Of a stretch of 64,000 nt of DNA, positions 1,839 to 60,188 are shown in pieces. Source of the stretch: an uncultured Solirubrobacterales bacterium (GTDB lineage: Bacteria > Actinomycetota > Thermoleophilia > Solirubrobacterales > 70-9); NCBI GenBank assembly GCA_963735255.1, contig CAVTKC010000003.1:12995-76994 (forward strand). Reading direction: 5' to 3'. The position numbers and the translations under genes were made by a program. The stretch's first letter is position 1. The number at the start of each line of letters is the position of its first letter. The notes beneath the pieces were generated by a model. The model was not told where the DNA came from, made no database searches, and was given only the letters and a program-made list of their open reading frames with translations.

Positions 1839-1985
1839 GGAGGGACCCGGATGTCCCCCGTGTGAATTGAGTCGCGCACCCTCACGGGTGCTGCTCCGGG
1901 AGATGGTGCGCGCCTATGGCGCGCAGAAGACAGATTGCATTTCGCCGCTGCGCGACATTCTCACGGGGGACATCCGGGTCCCTCC
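1839..1985 (+). repeat. Structured repeat, core family A, copy A1 (forward orientation)
   Basis: Perfect 24-bp arms GGAGGGACCCGGATGTCCCCCGTG (1839-1862) and CACGGGGGACATCCGGGTCCCTCC (1962-1985). They enclose a 99-nt core: TGAATTGAGTCGCGCACCCTCACGGGTGCTGCTCC...GTGCGCGCCTATGGCGCGCAG...GATTGCATTTCGCCGCTGCGCGACATTC. Confidence 0.85.
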
Positions 1986-2153: not shown

Positions 2154-2303
2154 GGGAGGGTGATGGCGCTCCCCCGCAGGAATGTCGCGAAGCGGCGGAA
2201 ATGCAATCCGATTCCTGCCCGCCATAGGCGGGCAGCATCCCCCGGAGCAGCACCCGAAGGGTGCGCGACTCAATTCCAGCGGGGGAGTGTCACCACCCCT
2301 CCC
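2154..2303 (-). repeat. Structured repeat, core family A, copy A2 (reverse orientation; convergent with A1)
   Basis: The reverse complement reads GGAATTGAGTCGCGCACCCTTCGGGTGCTGCTCC..CTGCCCGCCTATGGCGGGCAG..GGATTGCATTTCCGCCGCTTCGCGACATTCC. Arms 2154-2177 and 2279-2303 are imperfect (1 bulge, 3 non-Watson-Crick positions). It lies 18 nt downstream of the frameshift-corrected stop of the ManC-like gene, in sense orientation. Confidence 0.85.
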
Positions 2304-2320: not shown

Positions 2321-3324
2321 TCAGCCACGGAGACCGGCGATAGCACCGATCAACACCGAGCCCCCGGGGATCTGAGCCCCTGGCAAGGCAATCGTCTCCC
2401 GCAGCCTGCTGCCTGCCCCGATGCTGACCCCCGGCCCGATCACCGACGGCCCGTCGATCCGCACGTCGTCGCCGATCTCAGCCCCGTCCGCGATCAGTAC
2501 CGGCCCGGCCAGCGCACCCTCGTCGCCGGCGGGGGAGCCGCTGCGGTAGCCGTCGAGGAGCTCCCCTCGCGCTCGACCTCGACCGCCCCGCTGAGCGCGT
2601 CGAGGGTGCTCTCGCGCAGCTCCGTGAGGTTGCCGATGTCGTTCCAGTAGGCGTCGATCTCGTGCGAGTAGAAGGGCACGTCGCCGTCGAGCAGGCGCGG
2701 GAAGACGTCCATCGCCCAGTCGGCGAAGCCGGCGGGATCGCCGGGGCCGGCAGCTTTGCTGGTGCCGGGCGCGGGGAAGAAGTCGAAGATCTCCGAGCGA
2801 AACATGTAGATGCCGCAGTTGGCGAGGTCGGAGAGGGCCTCGGCCGGGTCGGGCTTCTCCTGGAAGCCCTGGATGCGGCCGTCGGCGCCGGTGATCGCGA
2901 CCCCGAACTGGCTGGTGTCGTCGACCCGCTTGGTCGCCAGCGTCGCGATCCCGTCGTGGGACTCGTGGAATTCGCGCATCGCCGTCAGGTCGAGGTCGGT
3001 GAGCGCGTCGCCGGAGATGATCAGGAAGGAGTCGCCGAGGAAACCGGCCGCGTTGCGGACGCCGCCGGAGGTGCCCAGCAGCTGCTCCTCGGGGCTGTAG
3101 GAGAGCTCGACGCCGAGCTGGGAGCCGTCGCCAAAGTGGGCTTCGATCAGCTCCGGGAACCAGTGCAGGTTGGCGATCGTCTCGGTGAAGCCGTGGCGGG
3201 CGAGCAGCAGCAGGATGTGCTCCATCACCGGCCGGTTCAGGACCGGCACCATCGGCTTCGGCATGTCGTAGGTGATCGGCCGCAAGCGGGTGCCCAGGCC
3301 GGCTGCCAGAACCATCGCCCTCAT
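2321..3324 (-). pseudogene. ManC-type NDP-sugar pyrophosphorylase (mannose-1-phosphate guanylyltransferase-like), frameshifted between the nucleotidyltransferase and LbH domains
   Basis: ATG at 3324 (ATGA overlap with the upstream stop) gives MRAMVLAAGLGTRLRPITYDMPKPMVPVLNRPVMEH... In that frame it ends at 2494 in junk (SSSTATAAAPPPATRV). A different frame then continues as GELLDGYRSGSPAGDEGALAGPVLIADGAEIGDDVRIDGPSVIGPGVSIGAGSRLRETIALPGAQIPGG (left-handed beta-helix) to a TGA at 2321-2323. One extra G in the run at about 2562-2566 restores the frame. Confidence 0.75.
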
Positions 3325-12257: not shown

Positions 12258-13874
<1,617 letters not shown>

Positions 13875-23626: not shown

Positions 23627-23757
23627 CGCCAACAACCCTAGACGGCTGCAAACCAAGCAGGTCGGGGGACGCAGGGAGGGAGACAAGGGGAGCGCACTCC
23701 GGTGCGTGACCCGCGGTCGACCGACCGAGGACCCGAGATGCGCCGGTTTGCAGCCGT

Positions 23758-24771
23758 CTAAGCGACGATCTCGATGTGCTGCTGCTTTGCCGCGTCCTCG
23801 GGCGTCTCGCGCGCCAGGACCGCGTTCAGCGAGGCGATCGCCACCGCCAACTGCTCTTCGTCGGGCTCGCGGGTGGTCAGGTTCTGCAGCATCAGCCCCG
23901 GCCACATCACCGCCCGCACCCAGCGTTTGCTGCGGTTTTTGCCCGCCCACTTGATCACCTCATAGGAGAGGCCGGCGATCAGCGGGATGCCGAGGATCCG
24001 CGAGAGCACCAGCCAGTACCAGGCGGGCAGCCCGATCGGGGCGAAGACGAAGATCGCCAGCACCATCACGATCAACAGGAAGCTGGTCCCGCAGCGCGGG
24101 TGCAGGCGCGAGTAGAGCTTGGCCCGCGAGGGGATCAGCTCGTCTTCGGCCTCGTAGCAGGAGATCGTCTTGTGCTCGGCCCCGTGGTACTCGAAGACCC
24201 GCCGCAGGTCCGGCATTTTGCTGATCGCGAGGATGTAGCCGATGAAGATCGCGGTGCGCAGGATCCCCTCGACCAGCCAGAAGAGGAAGGGCGAGCCGAG
24301 CTGGTCCTTGATCAGGCTGGTCAAGCCGACCGGGACGACGAAGAAGAGGCCGACCGAGAGGGCCAGGGAGAGGGCGATCGTCAAGCCCCAGATCCAGCCG
24401 CCGATCTCTTCCTTCTCGCCCTCGTCGTCGTCCTCCATCTGGGCGTTGGCGGAGATCGCCAATGCCTTGAAGCCGATCTTCATCGACTCCCCCAGGGCGA
24501 CGACGCCACGGAGGATCGGCAGCCGCCAGAGCCGGTGGCGCTGGGCCCAGGGGACCAGCGTGTCGGACTCGATCTCGATCGCGCCCTCGGGAGTGCGCAC
24601 GGCAACGGCCCAGACCGCGACGCCCCGCATCATCACGCCCTCCAGCACCGCCTGGCCACCGACCGGCGCGTCGCGCTTGGCGACCAGCGCCCCGTCGGGC
24701 ATGCGAACAGGGTCTCCCCCGTTACCGGAGGAGACAGGGGGTGCTTGCGCCGAGCCCACTGGCGGGCTCAC
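23758..24771 (-). CDS. DUF1385 family membrane protein
   Basis: VGGQAVLEGVMMRG...YHGAEHKTISCYE...HPRCGTSF. The rpmE-DUF1385-prfA arrangement is typical. Confidence 0.85.
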   Translation of the reverse strand: MSPPVGSAQAPPVSSGNGGDPVRMPDGALVAKRDAPVGGQAVLEGVMMRGVAVWAVAVRTPEGAIEIESDTLVPWAQRHRLWRLPILRGVVALGESMKIGFKALAISANAQMEDDDEGEKEEIGGWIWGLTIALSLALSVGLFFVVPVGLTSLIKDQLGSPFLFWLVEGILRTAIFIGYILAISKMPDLRRVFEYHGAEHKTISCYEAEDELIPSRAKLYSRLHPRCGTSFLLIVMVLAIFVFAPIGLPAWYWLVLSRILGIPLIAGLSYEVIKWAGKNRSKRWVRAVMWPGLMLQNLTTREPDEEQLAVAIASLNAVLARETPEDAAKQQHIEIVA

Positions 24772-43831: not shown

Positions 43832-43897
43832 CATGGTTTTATCAAGCAACTGTGCTCTGCGGAAGCCTATATCAGTCAGTTGCTTGATGCAACCATG
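43832..43897. promoter_or_regulatory. Long inverted repeat CATGGTTttATCAAGCAACTG - 24 nt - CAGTTGCTTGATgcAACCATG upstream of and overlapping the 5' end of hxlR
   Basis: Read directly: 19 of 21 positions are complementary, with a perfect 12-bp inner part. Lies in the lower-GC divergent region between the thioesterase and HxlR. The right arm contains the alternative start ATG 43895. Confidence 0.55.
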
Positions 43898-46832: not shown

Positions 46833-46895
46833 GCGCCGTGGGGGGAGGCACCTGCGAGCGAGGTCTACGTTCTCGGTACCTCCCCCCACGGCGCT
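46833..46895. terminator. Long GC-rich hairpin (20-bp stem with 1 mismatch, 23-nt loop) after the ALDH stop: an 'empty' version of the repeat stems
   Basis: GCGCCGTGGGGGGAGGCACC (46833-46852) pairs with GGTACCTCCCCCCACGGCGC (46876-46895). Starts 5 nt after the stop. No U-tract. Confidence 0.5.
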
Positions 46896-46923: not shown

Positions 46924-48069
46924 GTGAACTTCGAGCTCAGCGACGAGCAGAGACTGCTGCGGGACACGGTTCGCGACTTCGCGCGGCAGGAGGTCAAGCC
47001 GGTGGCGGAGGAGCTGGACCGGACCAAGTCGTTCCCCTACGAGATCGTCGCGAAGCTCGGCGGGCTCGGGCTGATGGGGATCCCCTTTCCGCAGGAGTAC
47101 GGCGGCGGCGGGGCCGACACGCTTTCTTATGTGCTGGCGGTCGAAGAGCTGGCGCGGATCGACTCCTCGGTCTGCATCACGATGGCCGCCCATACCTCGC
47201 TGGGGACGATGCCGATCTATCTCTGGGGCAGCGACGAGCAGAAGGCCGAATGGCTGCCGCGGCTGTGCAGCGGCGAGCGCCTCGCCTCCTTCGGGCTGAC
47301 CGAGCCGGAGGCCGGCTCCGACGCCGGCAACGTCCGCACCACCGCCAAGCTCGGGGACGGCGAGTGGACCGTCAACGGCGCCAAGCAGTTCATCACCAAC
47401 GCCGGCACCGAGATCTCCGGCTGCGTCTCGATCACCGCCGTCACCGGCGAGAGCAACGGGCGCAAGGAGGTCTCGAACCTGATCGTCCCGGTCGGCACCC
47501 CCGGCTACGAGATCGGCGAGGGGTACCGCAAGATGGGCTGGAACGCGTCCGACACGCGGCCGCTCGCGTTCGAGGACTGCCGCCTGCCCGAGTCGGCCCT
47601 GCTCGGCCGCCGCGGCGAGGGCTTCAAGAACTTCCTCCACATCCTCGACGGCGGCCGCATCGGGGTCGCCGCGATGGGCGTCGGCCTCGCCCAGGGCGCC
47701 CTCGACGAGGCGATTGCCTACGCCAAAGAGCGCCAAGCCTTTGGCCAGCCGATCTCCAAGTTCCAGGCGATTCAGGCCAAGATCGCCGACCTCTCGGCCC
47801 AAATCGAGGCGGCCCGCCTGCTGACCTGGCGGGCGGCGCTGGAGAAGGACGCCGGCCAGTCGTTCACCCTCACCGCCGCCCAGGCGAAGCTGATCACCGG
47901 CCGCCTCGCCGTCAAAGCGACCGAGGAGGCGGTGCAGATCCACGGCGGCTACGGCTTCATCGAGGAGTACCCGGTGTGTCGGTTCTACCGGGACGCGAAG
48001 ATCCTCACGATCGGCGAGGGGACGGATGAGGTCCAGCAGATGGTGATCGCGCGGCAGTTGGGCTGTTAG
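46924..48069 (+). CDS. Acyl-CoA dehydrogenase
   Basis: FPYEIVAKLGGLGLMGIPFPQEYGG...FGLTEPEAGSD...QIHGGYGFIEEYPVCRFYRDAKILTIGEGT. Confidence 0.95.
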   Translation: MNFELSDEQRLLRDTVRDFARQEVKPVAEELDRTKSFPYEIVAKLGGLGLMGIPFPQEYGGGGADTLSYVLAVEELARIDSSVCITMAAHTSLGTMPIYLWGSDEQKAEWLPRLCSGERLASFGLTEPEAGSDAGNVRTTAKLGDGEWTVNGAKQFITNAGTEISGCVSITAVTGESNGRKEVSNLIVPVGTPGYEIGEGYRKMGWNASDTRPLAFEDCRLPESALLGRRGEGFKNFLHILDGGRIGVAAMGVGLAQGALDEAIAYAKERQAFGQPISKFQAIQAKIADLSAQIEAARLLTWRAALEKDAGQSFTLTAAQAKLITGRLAVKATEEAVQIHGGYGFIEEYPVCRFYRDAKILTIGEGTDEVQQMVIARQLGC

Positions 48070-48074
48070 TCGGC

Positions 48075-48230
48075 GGGAGCGGGACGGGGACCTTCTCCCC
48101 CGTTGAATTGAGTCGCGCACCCTTCGGGCGCGGCTCCGGATGTTGGTGCGCGCCTATGGCGCGCAGATATCGGATTGCATTTCCGCCGCTTCGCGACATT
48201 CACGGGGGAGGAGGTCCCCGTCCCGCTCCC
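48075..48230 (+). repeat. Structured repeat, core family A, copy A3 (forward; sense to the ACAD gene, starts 5 nt after its stop)
   Basis: Arms GGGAGCGGGACGGGGACCTTCTCCCCCGT (48075-48103) and ACGGGGGAGGAGGTCCCCGTCCCGCTCCC (48202-48230) form 29 bp with a single T:G position. Core: TGAATTGAGTCGCGCACCCTTCGGGCGCGGCTCC..GTGCGCGCCTATGGCGCGCAG..GGATTGCATTTCCGCCGCTTCGCGACATTC. Confidence 0.88.
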
Positions 48231-48366
48231 CAACGCAGAGCCCGGGAACGGCCGACCAGCCCCGCATCGAGTGTCGAGCAGTGGCTTAGCTCCAGCGCTA
48301 GCTTCCCCAAGGAGGGGCAGCAACGATTCACCACGAGTCACGGGTGCGGTTGCCCTGCGGCTGCCG

Positions 48367-48519
48367 GGGCGGAGTCGGGTGCGTGGCTGGGGGAATGTCG
48401 CCGCAGGCGGCGGAAATGCAATCCGGTATCTGCGCCGCGGCAGCGGCGCACCGACATCCGAGCTAAGCCCCGAAGGGGCGTGCTCGCCAATTCCCCCAGC
48501 CACGCACCCGACTCCGCCC
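48367..48519 (-). repeat. Structured repeat, core subfamily B, copy B1 (reverse; sense to and abutting the histidine kinase stop codon)
   Basis: Perfect 27-bp arms GGGCGGAGTCGGGTGCGTGGCTGGGGG (48367-48393) and CCCCCAGCCACGCACCCGACTCCGCCC (48493-48519). Reverse complement of the core: GAATTGGCGAGCACGCCCCTTCGGGGCTTAGCTCGG..TGCGCCGCTGCCGCGGCGCA..GGATTGCATTTCCGCCGCCTGCGGCGACATTC. Confidence 0.88.
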
Positions 48520-49371
48520 TCACGCCGACTTCAACGTGAACCGCACCCGCGTCCCCGGATGCCCGTCCTCGAGCCAGATCCGCCCCCCGTGCGCTTCGAC
48601 GATCGCCCGGGAGATCGCCAGGCCGAGGCCGGCACCGTCCTCGCCGCGCGAGTCGTCGCCGCGGTAGAAGGCCTCGAAGACCCGCTCGCCGGAGCCGGCG
48701 GGCACTCCCTCACCGTCGTCGGCGACCTCGACCTCGACGTCGCCGCCGGCCGGCCGGGCGCGGACGGTGACGCTGCCGTCGGCGGGGGTGTGGCGAATCG
48801 CGTTCTGGATCAGGTTGAAGAGGACCCGCTGCACCTTCTCGGCGTTGGCCTCTGCCAAAACGTGTCCGGCGGGCAGGTCGGCGGCGATCCGCACACCGCG
48901 CTCGGCCGCCGGCGCCCGCATCGCCGCCACGGTGTCGCCGATCAGGTCGCCGAGCTCGACCTGGCGCATCGTCCAGGAAATGTCCCCGGCCTCGATCCGC
49001 GAGAGCTCGAAGAGGTCGTCGATGAGGTCGCTGAGGACGGCGACGTGGGTGCGGATCTCCTTCAGGTAACGGTCGCGGGTCTCCCCCGTCGCGACCCCGT
49101 CATCGATCGACTCGACCAGCAGCCGCAGCGAGGCGAGCGGCGTGCGCAGGTCGTGCGAGGCCGCCGCGACCAGCTGGCGGCGCGCCTCCTCGATCTGCCG
49201 CCGCGAGCGCTCCTCCATCGCCAGCCGCACCGCCAGCGCCGTCGCCAAGGCGGCGCCGACCGCGGCCAGGACGGCGAGCAGGATCTGGTCGGCGCCCATC
49301 CGGCCGGGCACCGCGACCGCGGCAGCACCGGCGAGGAAAGACGCGACGGCGATGACGAGGGCGCGCTTCAC
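48520..49371 (-). CDS. Sensor histidine kinase, intramembrane-sensing type (two N-terminal TM helices, no extracytoplasmic domain or HAMP)
   Basis: AAASHDLRTPLASL (H-box)...LIQNAIRHTP (N-box)...DDGEGV..GAGLGLAISRAIVEAHGG (G-boxes). Confidence 0.9.
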   Translation of the reverse strand: MKRALVIAVASFLAGAAAVAVPGRMGADQILLAVLAAVGAALATALAVRLAMEERSRRQIEEARRQLVAAASHDLRTPLASLRLLVESIDDGVATGETRDRYLKEIRTHVAVLSDLIDDLFELSRIEAGDISWTMRQVELGDLIGDTVAAMRAPAAERGVRIAADLPAGHVLAEANAEKVQRVLFNLIQNAIRHTPADGSVTVRARPAGGDVEVEVADDGEGVPAGSGERVFEAFYRGDDSRGEDGAGLGLAISRAIVEAHGGRIWLEDGHPGTRVRFTLKSA

Positions 49372-51864: not shown

Positions 51865-52035
51865 TCAGTGCATCGCCGGGCCGTGCTCCATCGCGTGGCC
51901 GTGGTGCTTCATCGCGTGGCCGTGGTGCTTCATCGCGTGGCCGTGCTTCTTGGCGGCGCTCGCGCCCGTGCCGCCGAAGGCGACCAGCCCGAAGACCGCC
52001 ACCGCCGTGATCGTCAATGCCCTTCTCAACCGCAT
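51865..52035 (-). CDS. Small secreted His/Met-rich peptide (56 aa), first gene of the DipZ two-component operon; NOT in the supplied ORF track
   Basis: Manual translation: GGAAGGAGcaag-ATG MRLRRALTITAVAVFGLVAFGGTGASA|AKKHGHAMKHHGHAMKHHGHAMEHGPAMH-TGA. It has a signal peptide, three HGHAM(K/E)H repeats plus a degenerate fourth (HGPAMH), a strong RBS, and its stop lies 3 nt before the dipZ ATG. Confidence 0.7.
   Translation of the reverse strand: MRLRRALTITAVAVFGLVAFGGTGASAAKKHGHAMKHHGHAMKHHGHAMEHGPAMH
51889..51948. repeat. 21-nt tandem repeat CATCGCGTGGCCGTGGTGCTT x2 plus a 3-nt-shorter third unit (encodes the HHGHAMK repeats)
   Basis: Read directly from the sequence. In-frame repeats lie inside the small peptide gene. 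Confidence 0.85.
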
Positions 52036-54786: not shown

Positions 54787-54932
54787 GAGGGGTCCGGTCG
54801 TCCTCCATTCGAATGTCGCGCAGCGGCGATATGCAATCTGTCTCCTGCGCCGCGGCAGCGGCGCACCAACACCCGAGCTAAGCGGCGCAGCCGCGTGCTC
54901 GCCAATTCGAATGGAGGACGACCGGACCCCTC
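54787..54932 (-). repeat. Structured repeat, core subfamily B, copy B2 (solo, reverse orientation)
   Basis: Perfect 24-bp arms GAGGGGTCCGGTCGTCCTCCATTC (54787-54810) and GAATGGAGGACGACCGGACCCCTC (54909-54932). Reverse complement of the core: GAATTGGCGAGCACGCGGCTGCGCCGCTTAGCTCGG..TGCGCCGCTGCCGCGGCGCA..AGATTGCATATCGCCGCTGCGCGACATTC. Confidence 0.88.
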
Positions 54933-59792: not shown

Positions 59793-59920
59793 TGAGGGAG
59801 GGTGCGGGTGTCCCTCTCCCTTGCTGGGATTTTCGCCAGAACAACTGAGTCCGTCCGAGGTGGAGCTCTCGGGCGAAAATCAGGACGCCGCGCGTCCGAG
59901 GGACACCCGCACCCTCCTCA
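59793..59920 (+). repeat. Structured repeat, core family C, copy C1 (forward)
   Basis: Arms AGGGTGCGGGTGTCCCTC (59799-59816) and GAGGGACACCCGCACCCT (59898-59915) are perfect; TGAGG(G) and CCTCA extend them with 1 bulge. The core contains the inner 10-bp stem GATTTTCGCC...GGCGAAAATC. Confidence 0.85.
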
Positions 59921-60033
59921 CGCTTCGAGATCGCTCCAGCTCACGAGGAGCCGGAGGATCGGCGCTCTCAGCTCAAAGGAGCCGCGGCTTGGGCGCTCTT
60001 AGCTGAACTGCCGTACTTCGCGACGCTTGCGTT

Positions 60034-60158
60034 GGGAGGGGTCGGGCACCTCTCGTACGAGCGGCGTCCGATTTTCGCCCGAGAGGCCTCCCTCGGACGG
60101 CCGTTAATAGTTCCTGGCGAAAATCCCAGCGAAGGTAGAGAGGTGCCCGACCCCTCCC
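60034..60158 (-). repeat. Structured repeat, core family C, copy C2 (reverse; convergent with C1)
   Basis: Perfect 21-bp arms GGGAGGGGTCGGGCACCTCTC (60034-60054) and GAGAGGTGCCCGACCCCTCCC (60138-60158). The reverse complement of the core aligns along its full length with C1 (GCTGGGATTTTCGCCAG..CCGTCCGAGG..CTCTCGGGCGAAAATC.GGACGCCGC). Confidence 0.85.
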
Positions 60159-60188
60159 CCACCCAGCCTTCGAAGTACGTCGTCCTGA

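Follow-up and report, generated by a model that had tools for sequence, protein, structure and literature searches.

The 64,000-nucleotide stretch analysed here (positions 12,995 to 76,994 of contig CAVTKC010000003.1, from an uncultured Solirubrobacterales bacterium; hereafter the window) carries, at 48075-48519, two convergent modules of about 150 nt that lie between the stop codon of an acyl-CoA dehydrogenase (ACAD) gene and that of a histidine kinase gene. Each module is a closing stem of about 30 bp around a core of about 95 nt, and both belong to a repeat family of which a profile search over all sampled DNA returned 192 copies. We consider this family to be, with fair probability, a REPIN/BIME-like, dispersed, non-coding and non-autonomous composite repeat, in which self-folding modules act as single-stranded DNA (ssDNA) hairpins and the stems are kept by templated correction or turnover. 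The spreading unit would consist of two modules of about 150 bp in fixed convergent orientation around a variable, AGCT-rich spacer, and what folds and is selected would be ssDNA, from the complement of the "forward" core, and not mRNA.

An inverted-repeat search gave the left module, A1 (48075-48230, forward strand), arms of 29 nt at 48075-48103 and 48202-48230, 97% complementary with one T:G position, and the right, inverted module, B1 (48367-48519, reverse strand), arms of 30 nt at 48367-48396 and 48490-48519, 100% complementary, a count that takes in the conserved GAAT/ATTC. The doublet had first been noticed in a sequence-only reading of the window, and both of its stems and, by Pfam, both flanking genes were confirmed; the stem then given as 29 bp with a single T:G stands, and the one given as a perfect 27 bp becomes 30 nt once GAAT/ATTC is included. 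A third inverted repeat of 29 nt, at 48161-48189 and 48407-48435, showed that the cores of A1 and B1 are inverted copies of each other. In the predicted folds, a single long closing stem encloses a multi-hairpin core, with minimum free energies of -117 kcal/mol for A1, in which the closing stem P1 is fully paired, and -117.6 kcal/mol for B1, and the two modules score 147.9 and 130 bits, respectively, with the covariance model. Along A1, the 5' strand of P1 (48075-48108), made of 29 variable nucleotides, one unpaired T and the conserved GAAT, is followed by hairpin H1 (48110-48136), whose stem covaries and differs in sequence among copies, by hairpin H2 (48139-48171), which consists of TGCGCGCC-TAT-GGCGCGCA plus an outer stem, by a nearly invariant 3' core, GGATTGCATTTCCGCCGCTTCGCGACATTC (48172-48201), and by the 3' strand of P1 (48198-48230). 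The 3' core, delimited by pattern matches and invariant columns, contains H3, whose short stem carries the GATTGCAT loop region, as well as H4 (CGC-TTC-GCG) and ATTC, the pairing partner of GAAT. The 136-nt spacer of the doublet (48231-48366) opens with the C/A-rich 3' tail of A1.

Throughout the family the modules measure 146-156 nt, and their arms are of fixed length, extending about 25 bp beyond GAAT/ATTC, with the consensus GGGAGG-nn-C(C/T)GG-nnnn-CCTC-nnnn-GAATTG mirrored on the 3' side. We aligned 122 copies and scored pairs on the consensus structure, with 500 column shuffles and structures slid by 1-3 columns as controls. In this alignment 93.9% of cells were paired and changes on both sides were found in 40 of the 50 pairs (P1 26/30, H1 8/8, and H2 6/7 with 98% of its cells paired), and the covariation score was 0.539 versus 0.145 after shuffling (0/500 reached 0.539) and about 0.09 after sliding. 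Forty of the 122 copies had no mismatch over the 27 inner stem pairs. Mean pairwise identity between copies was about 49% in the arms, where only GGGAGG, GG and CCTC are conserved, versus 93% in the 3' core, where the segment GATTGCAT..CGCCGC..GCGACATTC is nearly invariant. Thus, the better conservation of cores than of arms and the compensatory changes in stems and internal hairpins, both noticed by eye in the sequence-only reading, were borne out by the larger alignment, as was its view that the structure is actively maintained and is not that of a passively decaying MITE (miniature inverted-repeat transposable element), for which the covariation and the diverged yet paired arms at ilvC (see below) speak. 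Its description of the arms as copy-specific, with only outer and inner ends in common, had to be given up: the arms are homologous, share a consensus and covary at their variable positions, and they are not derived from the target. The sequence flanking the stem is rich in G/T on the 5' side and in C/A on the 3' side. Enrichment of AGCT(T/C)C motifs is seen at 10-25 nt downstream of the stem and all along the doublet spacers, which vary in length and sequence.

Downstream of ilvC, a doublet is present in six species with its first module 10-20 nt past the stop codon. Identity among these orthologues was 95% at codon positions 1+2, 80% at the third position and 69% in the module arms, and the mismatches of arm to arm nevertheless numbered 0-1 in five of the six species. 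In one closely related trio of these sites (L056, L058 and L082; L numbers denote sampled stretches) there were 3-5 arm differences per pair, nearly all of them compensated. Moreover, G·U made up just 0.7% of inner-stem cells, and 60% of the double changes (93% in hairpin 2) were of transversion type, GC<->CG or GC<->TA, which have no wobble intermediate. Were purifying selection the cause, compensatory changes would be expected to accrue more slowly than neutral ones and to pass via wobble intermediates. Because the arms exceed third-position divergence, G·U is rare and 60% of the double changes lack a wobble intermediate, we infer a templated DNA process in which one arm serves as the template for copying or correcting the other. 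The sequence-only reading had left selection for structure and its templated maintenance side by side; templated maintenance fits better than selection alone, given the ilvC arms (69% vs 80%) and the excess of GC<->CG over transition-type changes. Template switching at an imperfect palindrome, palindrome correction or arm-to-arm conversion on an extruded hairpin would each keep the arms Watson-Crick complementary, and frequent replacement by fresh copies may add to the pairing.

The inverted doublet is the rule in this family. Neighbouring copies less than 700 nt apart were +/- in 66 cases, +/+ in two and -/+ in none (68 close pairs of the 192-copy profile search), and 126 of the 167 fully covered copies (about 75%) are in doublets. 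The genes around 44 classified doublets were convergent in 21 cases, co-directional in 19 and divergent in 4; in the co-directional contexts the doublet has one half after the stop codon of the upstream gene and the other, antisense, immediately ahead of the start codon of the next gene, as between atpC and an M20 peptidase gene (about 11 species) and between the NTP-transferase and comF genes of the window. Single copies in callable co-directional contexts were sense in six cases and antisense in six. The convergent arrangement belongs to the doublet and does not follow from gene orientation, so that the earlier statement that each element is in sense orientation to the gene it follows is right for 48075-48519 and does not hold as a rule. 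Many copies begin 0-30 nt past a stop codon on the sense strand, and these contexts show that copies are tolerated mainly at gene 3' ends. Whole doublets were also found duplicated: in L001 and L030, two contigs of one metagenome-assembled genome (MAG), the doublets of about 520 bp are 90-98% identical, spacer included, with flanks of about 40% identity, and a second MAG carries one doublet subtype at four loci or more, a subtype that other species have too, in each case between flanks that are unrelated. This shows that the canonical, spreading unit is the doublet, which is duplicated between loci.

Two asymmetries bear on which strand folds. In the inner part of P1 there were 52 A·C cells versus 20 G·U cells (48 versus 20 events at cluster level, p = 0.0009), and in the 75 copies that are read into by a sense gene the inner stem had 29 A·C and 6 G·U; a forward A·C is G·T on the complementary strand. 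Among C:G-closed triloops of the forward strand, 141 were C(TNC)G (TTC 63, TGC 55, TAC 17, TCC 6) versus 9 C(GNA)G, and on the complementary strand those 141 read C(GNA)G. Loops of the d(GNA) type with a C:G closing pair form very stable DNA hairpins (PMC3201870). A reading of the C(TNC)G loops as c(UNCG)g tetraloops was excluded by the stem register. The wobble and triloop asymmetries point away from a forward-strand transcript, and from the sequences at hand the most economical reading is that the complementary strand folds as ssDNA. Effects on transcripts, for instance of a hairpin at the mRNA 3' end, would then be by-products or later co-option.

A terminator or 3'-UTR RNA module, one of the two explanations first offered for the doublet, is not supported as the primary one. 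Such an RNA-level account would make the modules 3'-UTR cis elements (factor-dependent or U-less terminators, 3'-exonuclease barriers or RNase III substrates, as for REP, ERIC and Correia elements) that are kept by selection on the transcript. It draws on the many copies that begin just past a sense stop codon, on the enrichment of doublets between convergent genes (21/44), on the perfect 30-bp stem as a plausible double-stranded RNA substrate, on the occurrence of GGGAGG...CCTCCC in either orientation, by which the stem forms whichever strand is transcribed, and on the many bacterial repeats at gene 3' ends that are co-transcribed and affect mRNA stability (PMC3184786). However, there was no T-tract or terminator-like site in 47800-48800, the 3' flanks hold 5-15% T, sense-read copies have far fewer G·U than A·C in stems where G·U is rare throughout, and loop identity is constrained on the opposite strand. 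Moreover, co-directional singles are evenly sense and antisense, every co-directional doublet has one antisense half directly upstream of the next gene, and arms more diverged than third codon positions do not agree with compensatory evolution under purifying selection, which should be slower. We therefore regard an RNA-level module as unlikely. That the modules are independent small-RNA genes, each with its own promoter, seems the least credible account of all: the compact multi-hairpin fold and the conserved unpaired nucleotides would suit it, and the wobble bias fits an RNA of the complementary strand, but we found no sigma-70-like promoter in the region, TANNNT in the 90 nt to each side was limited to 0.07-0.09 occurrences per copy and peaked at no position, the modules have no terminator tail, and Rfam gave nothing beyond generic hairpins even at E <= 10.

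Comparison of filled and empty orthologous sites in relatives, which the sequence-only reading had proposed, revealed empty, degenerate and filled states. In the syntenic series PGI / NTP-transferase / [site] / comF / S30AE / secA, the site between NTP-transferase and comF is empty in L125 and L126 (93 and 68 nt), holds a doublet with a spacer of about 20 nt in L128 and one with a 169-nt spacer in the window, and is degenerate in L127, where the left module has no 3' arm and the right module is an outer-arm remnant only. On the 3' side of ACAD, intergenic space is lacking altogether in L121-L123; L118 has one module, of another variant, and in L119 and L120 there is none. Target-site duplication was absent: the longest direct match between a copy's own flanks was 3.20 nt for doublets and 3.05 nt for singles versus 3.17 and 3.20 nt for permuted flanks, and the complementarity of doublet flanks equalled that of permuted flanks.

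These sites also bear on another account, in which the modules are high-affinity, possibly cruciform, host DNA sites for a nucleoid protein, topoisomerase or recombinase at gene ends, as in the gyrase/IHF model of BIMEs. Core motifs nearly invariant over at least 75 species, the persistence of copies at orthologous sites 3' of ilvC and atpC, an orientation independent of transcription, palindromic AGCT-type motifs recurring in the spacers and the enrichment between convergent genes, where positive supercoils accumulate, would all fit such a site. Duplex binding, however, leaves the covariation of variable stems and the strand-asymmetric loops unexplained, close relatives have empty syntenic sites, the recent duplication of whole doublets within a genome resembles proliferation, and no candidate protein is known; as the primary explanation we hold a host DNA site to be improbable. 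A host role, whether as an mRNA 3'-end hairpin or as a DNA site for a protein, could possibly coexist with the dispersed-repeat account. That invariant motifs persist at orthologous sites argues that the cores are still read by something.

Several results weigh against the account of the family as a dispersed ssDNA repeat. The invariant unpaired core segment would be the recognition site of a trans-acting, structure-specific enzyme, for which a HUH/Y1-type transposase (RAYT-like) is the obvious candidate, and none was found: no transposase or HUH gene was seen between or near the modules, and where modules are separated, in L083 and L019, what lies between them is ordinary, a methyltransferase gene and a membrane-protein gene, with no transposase. 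A jackhmmer search with E. coli RayT against open reading frames (ORFs) of at least 70 aa in the window, 117 loci and L118-L123 (about 1 Mb; whole genomes were not scanned) gave only a spurious match at E = 0.014, so that the transposase search proposed in the sequence-only reading found none in the sampled DNA. In a profile of 85 copies the GTAG tetranucleotide of REPs was at no fixed position; the 5' flank is just G-rich and A-poor, with GTAG, GGTA or TGAG in a minority. The ssDNA inference consists of two statistical asymmetries, and a reverse-strand RNA would show the same wobble bias. The polymorphic sites may reflect either gain or loss of copies. Copies persist at orthologous sites (6-11 species; ilvC, atpC) with invariant core motifs, which could equally mean a host function. 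Single copies are as well conserved as members of doublets, unlike REP singlets, in a sample whose choice by the core motif makes this comparison weaker. Finally, every copy derives from metagenome-assembled genomes. When ORFs within 400 nt of the modules were clustered, only housekeeping families appeared (among them M20 peptidase, atpC, ilvC, cupin, sigma factor and ACAD). A GTAG tag had looked promising by eye in one subfamily and was rejected; the family has no motif at a fixed position.

In a core-pattern scan over species-representative genomes, the pattern was found in at least 117 stretches of 75 assemblies, nearly all of them MAGs of uncultured Solirubrobacterales, with a few assemblies labelled Thermoleophilia, Conexibacteraceae, Actinomycetes or Actinomycetota. 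The family is thus present in at least 75 Solirubrobacterales MAGs at species level, a set that includes several complete chromosomes of 2.4-3.0 Mb. The window ACAD is 92-96% identical to proteins of the Solirubrobacterales MAGs that carry copies of the repeat, which places the window in that clade. Rfam, a scan of which had been suggested, gave no match at gathering score over the whole window, and the doublet at E <= 10 gave generic long-hairpin matches far below gathering score. The repeat had no match in viral contigs, phage records or plasmid records, and there is thus no sign of a phage or plasmid origin. A literature search for repeats of this clade found no description, and the family is apparently previously undescribed. 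Among the listed matches a single one falls outside Actinomycetota: L086 (JBLMYD010000126.1, 24001-24304), the final 304 nt of a contig from a MAG labelled "Chloroflexota", which probably reflects an error of binning or assembly and not horizontal spread.

A long-inverted-repeat scan of the sampled DNA returned further families, C, D, E and F, which have the same arm type and unrelated cores. Family C is represented in the window by a convergent doublet at 59797-59917 (forward) and 60034-60158 (reverse), between convergent methyltransferase and adenylate cyclase genes identified by Pfam; the covariance model also yields it, as a weaker, diverged doublet at 59793-59929 and 60023-60161, and it was absent from the sequence-only reading. 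Its GGGAGG..CCTC arms of 20-21 nt are perfect here, its core is distinct and has the internal inverted repeat GGGATTTTCGCC / GGCGAAAATC, and relatives are present in L020, L053, L080 and L110. Family D consists of hairpins of about 78 bp with a short conserved core, CAAAACGCTCGGCGGGAGCCTCGCTTGAGTGTTTTG, in L027 (4777-4854), L050 (3895-3970), L070 (2079-2158), L107 (2708-2783 and 5575-5649) and L117 (1085-1162 and 6334-6409). Family E (L012, L021, L038, L100) and family F (L075, L095) likewise have arms of the GGGAGG..CCTC type, and some arm pairs of this type enclose only 16-24-nt loops. Because unrelated cores share one arm type, the arms act as a scaffold common to the families, in which the cores are modules that can be exchanged.

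The second explanation first offered, a mobile cassette that inserts into or replaces intergenic hairpins, is not supported, but keeps one strength in these families, in that unrelated cores share an arm type. In its full form, small mobile core cassettes would enter loops of hairpins that the host already had, such as terminators, and the stems would be target-derived. In its favour stand the families A/B, C, D, E and F inside one arm type, and the arm pairs with 16-24-nt loops. Against this, the arms are part of the element: they are fixed in length, homologous with a shared consensus and contiguous with the core GAAT/ATTC, and the modules move whole, with arms and spacer. In addition, the empty sites in L125 and L126 showed no GGGAGG..CCTC hairpin by eye, and flanks are not complementary beyond chance. 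Therefore, we consider insertion of cores into host hairpins very improbable.

Besides the doublet at 48075-48519, the window contains other copies of the studied family. The core pattern GATTGCAT-N2-3-CGCCGC-N2-6-GCGACATTC has exactly five matches in the window and none in 100 shuffles; the matches, at 1839-1985 (forward), 2154-2303 (reverse), 48075-48230 (forward), 48367-48519 (reverse) and 54787-54932 (reverse), are precisely the five copies listed in the sequence-only reading, and all score 130-151 bits with the covariance model. Together with family C, the window holds three doublets and one single copy. The single copy at 54787-54932 has arms of 28 nt, 100% complementary, and scores 133.5 bits. 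The second doublet (1839-2303), supported by inverted repeats, the covariance model and Pfam, has a 169-nt spacer and lies between the 3' end of the NTP-transferase gene and the start of the comF-like gene, both on the reverse strand; a divergent-gene context was considered for it and rejected, as Pfam and orthologues showed the genes to be co-directional. The NTP-transferase gene itself seems frameshifted at about 2321-2520 (reverse): the frame with the Pfam domain stops at 2494, and the conserved C-terminus (..AQIPGGSVLIGAIAGLRG*) lies in another frame, can be aligned to orthologues of 331-336 aa and ends about 18 nt before module A2, so that the break may be either an assembly indel or a real pseudogene.

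The genes beside the doublet at 48075-48519 are that for ACAD (46924-48069, forward; Pfam), which stops 5 nt before A1, and that for the histidine kinase (HisKA + HATPase_c; 48520-49371, reverse; Pfam), whose stop abuts B1. In the window about 4 kb (the histidine kinase, a response regulator and another gene) separate ACAD from the PRC/MeaB genes that abut ACAD in L121-L123. In L118 (3682-4520; also in L119 and L120) a lower-GC gene of 257 aa with no Pfam domain lies directly after ACAD. In L118 a degraded second copy of the final ~60 nt of ACAD comes next, and after it the single module, an order that suggests that a gene was inserted beside the repeat at the 3' end of ACAD. Just 5' of the ACAD start, at 46833-46894, there is a hairpin whose loop measures 22 nt and whose arms, of 20 nt, are 95% complementary; similar hairpins with the conserved loop CCTGCGGGCGAGGT.T.CGTTCTCGG were found in L103 (6634-6695), L017 (1059-1125) and L087 (7929-7990), and the element may be cis-regulatory or an operator.

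Other structured sequences were noticed during these searches. At 23639-23760 there is a 122-nt element with a perfect 16-bp closing stem, TAGACGGCTGCAAACC / GGTTTGCAGCCGTCTA, whose core, ..GGACGCAGGGAG..GCG..GACCGA.GAC..GAGATGCGCC, is found again, closed by other stems, in L025 (5522-5625), L087 (833-933), L076 (1189-1293) and L096 (6765-6867); Rfam gave no match to it at E <= 1, and it resembles either a further family of structured, hairpin-closed repeats or an RNA not yet described. A conserved, hairpin-closed element of about 113 nt, with arms of about 20 nt and the core ..GAAACGTCTTGTACTTTTTCG...CGAAAAAGTTAAGTG.., was present in three MAGs (L008 3800-3912, L019 307-420, L090 3444-3558); it has no relation to the studied family and is possibly an RNA. 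An AT-richer palindrome, CATGGTTTTATCAAGCAACTG / CAGTTGCTTGATGCAACCATG, at 43832-43897 (21-nt arms, 90% complementary, 24-nt spacer) stands in surroundings of about 70% GC and looks like an operator. At about 51880-51960 (reverse) a 21-nt sequence, CATCGCGTGGCCGTGGTGCTT, is repeated in tandem in about three copies, and the reverse strand would encode a short histidine-rich peptide repeat.

If the family is indeed a REPIN/BIME-like repeat, the REPIN/BIME lifestyle, that of an inverted-doublet replicator living long inside a genome, reaches a deep uncultured actinobacterial lineage with small genomes (about 2.5-3 Mb), in an architecture far larger and more elaborate than any REP. The unusual traits of the family are very long stems that are perfect yet more diverged than third codon positions, strand-specific loops of the DNA type, and modular cores. 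With hundreds of copies and several orthologous series, the family is a clean natural data set for weighing templated correction against selection in drifting palindromes. On the practical side, the modules break assemblies and invite false ORF calls in high-GC MAGs, and they are worth masking or modelling when terminators and small RNAs are annotated. If the core is the site of a new structure-specific DNA enzyme, it would be of mechanistic and possibly biotechnological interest. More speculatively, and with doubts that outweigh our confidence, the modules may belong to a previously unrecognised class of vertically persistent, self-correcting ssDNA hairpin replicators of Actinomycetota, with a shared arm scaffold, interchangeable cores that dock dedicated non-RAYT proteins, and stems re-templated from themselves; such a class would be a REPIN-like partnership of host and element with new enzymology and a built-in palindrome-perfecting mechanism.

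Among known systems, the inverted terminal repeats of parvoviruses and the fold-backs of Streptomyces telomeres are T- or Y-shaped ssDNA of about 125-150 nt with a long stem, small GNA-loop hairpins and an unpaired tail, and in adeno-associated virus the stem is re-copied from itself. The modules would resemble them in a T- or Y-shaped fold of similar size with GNA-type loops, but lie inside chromosomes, keep one orientation of the core towards the tail with no flip/flop (66/68 convergent) and have no Rep or terminal-protein genes in sight. Integron attC sites are recognised on one strand as folded ssDNA, keep structure more than stem sequence and stand just after a stop codon, and the modules would be like them in all three respects. 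However, the modules are scattered among housekeeping genes, with no cassette arrays or integrase among the neighbouring genes, and conserve the central part with a variable stem, the opposite of attC; an attC core-site motif, R''/R' (GTTRRRY), was not noticed by eye in the flanks of the modules, for which no formal motif search was run.

With the ERIC, Correia and RUP MITEs the modules share a length of 100-160 bp, terminal inverted repeats around a core, long stem-loops and a position at gene 3' ends. ERIC is conserved across genera, and MITEs are flanked by a target-site duplication (PMC3184786). The modules differ in having no target-site duplication or TA flank and in dispersing as a doublet instead of a single element, and their inverted repeats vary (about 49% identical) and covary, whereas those of MITEs are conserved transposase-binding sites. 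Membership among classical MITEs fails on both target-site duplication and conserved terminal repeats.

REPs have no target-site duplication and are usually species-specific. Each half of the doublet described here is a self-contained, multi-hairpin module of about 150 nt, roughly five times larger than a REP of 20-40 nt, and the halves do not pair via their arms as in REPINs: partner arms differ, and only the cores are mutually complementary (29 nt in the window). These two differences also count against a REPIN-like nature. In addition, the most conserved part is an unpaired core segment common to an order-level clade, different cores are carried on one arm type, and no RAYT, the tyrosine transposase that mobilises REP doublets, was found in the sampled DNA. 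A conserved GTAG (or CGTC) tetranucleotide at one end is a hallmark of REPs (PMC3733652), and no fixed GTAG exists here. The earlier remark that the size does not fit agrees with this, and membership of a REP/REPIN family is not established. The analogy of organisation that was drawn at the same time gained support from the 66 convergent pairs in 68 and from the duplication of a doublet between loci. REPINs are over-represented inverted doublets that form a hairpin in ssDNA or mRNA and frequently show compensatory changes, and doublets make up 61% of the REPs in Pseudomonas fluorescens SBW25 (PMC3116915), versus about 75% in the present family. Like REPINs and BIMEs, the modules are extragenic and of high copy number, have the inverted doublet as replicative unit with a less conserved spacer, combine hairpin potential with compensatory changes and lack a target-site duplication. 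They also persist for long, here at orthologous sites, which agrees with the long vertical persistence of REPINs (bioRxiv 10.1101/2021.07.10.451892). Of the organisations known, that of REPINs and BIMEs comes closest.

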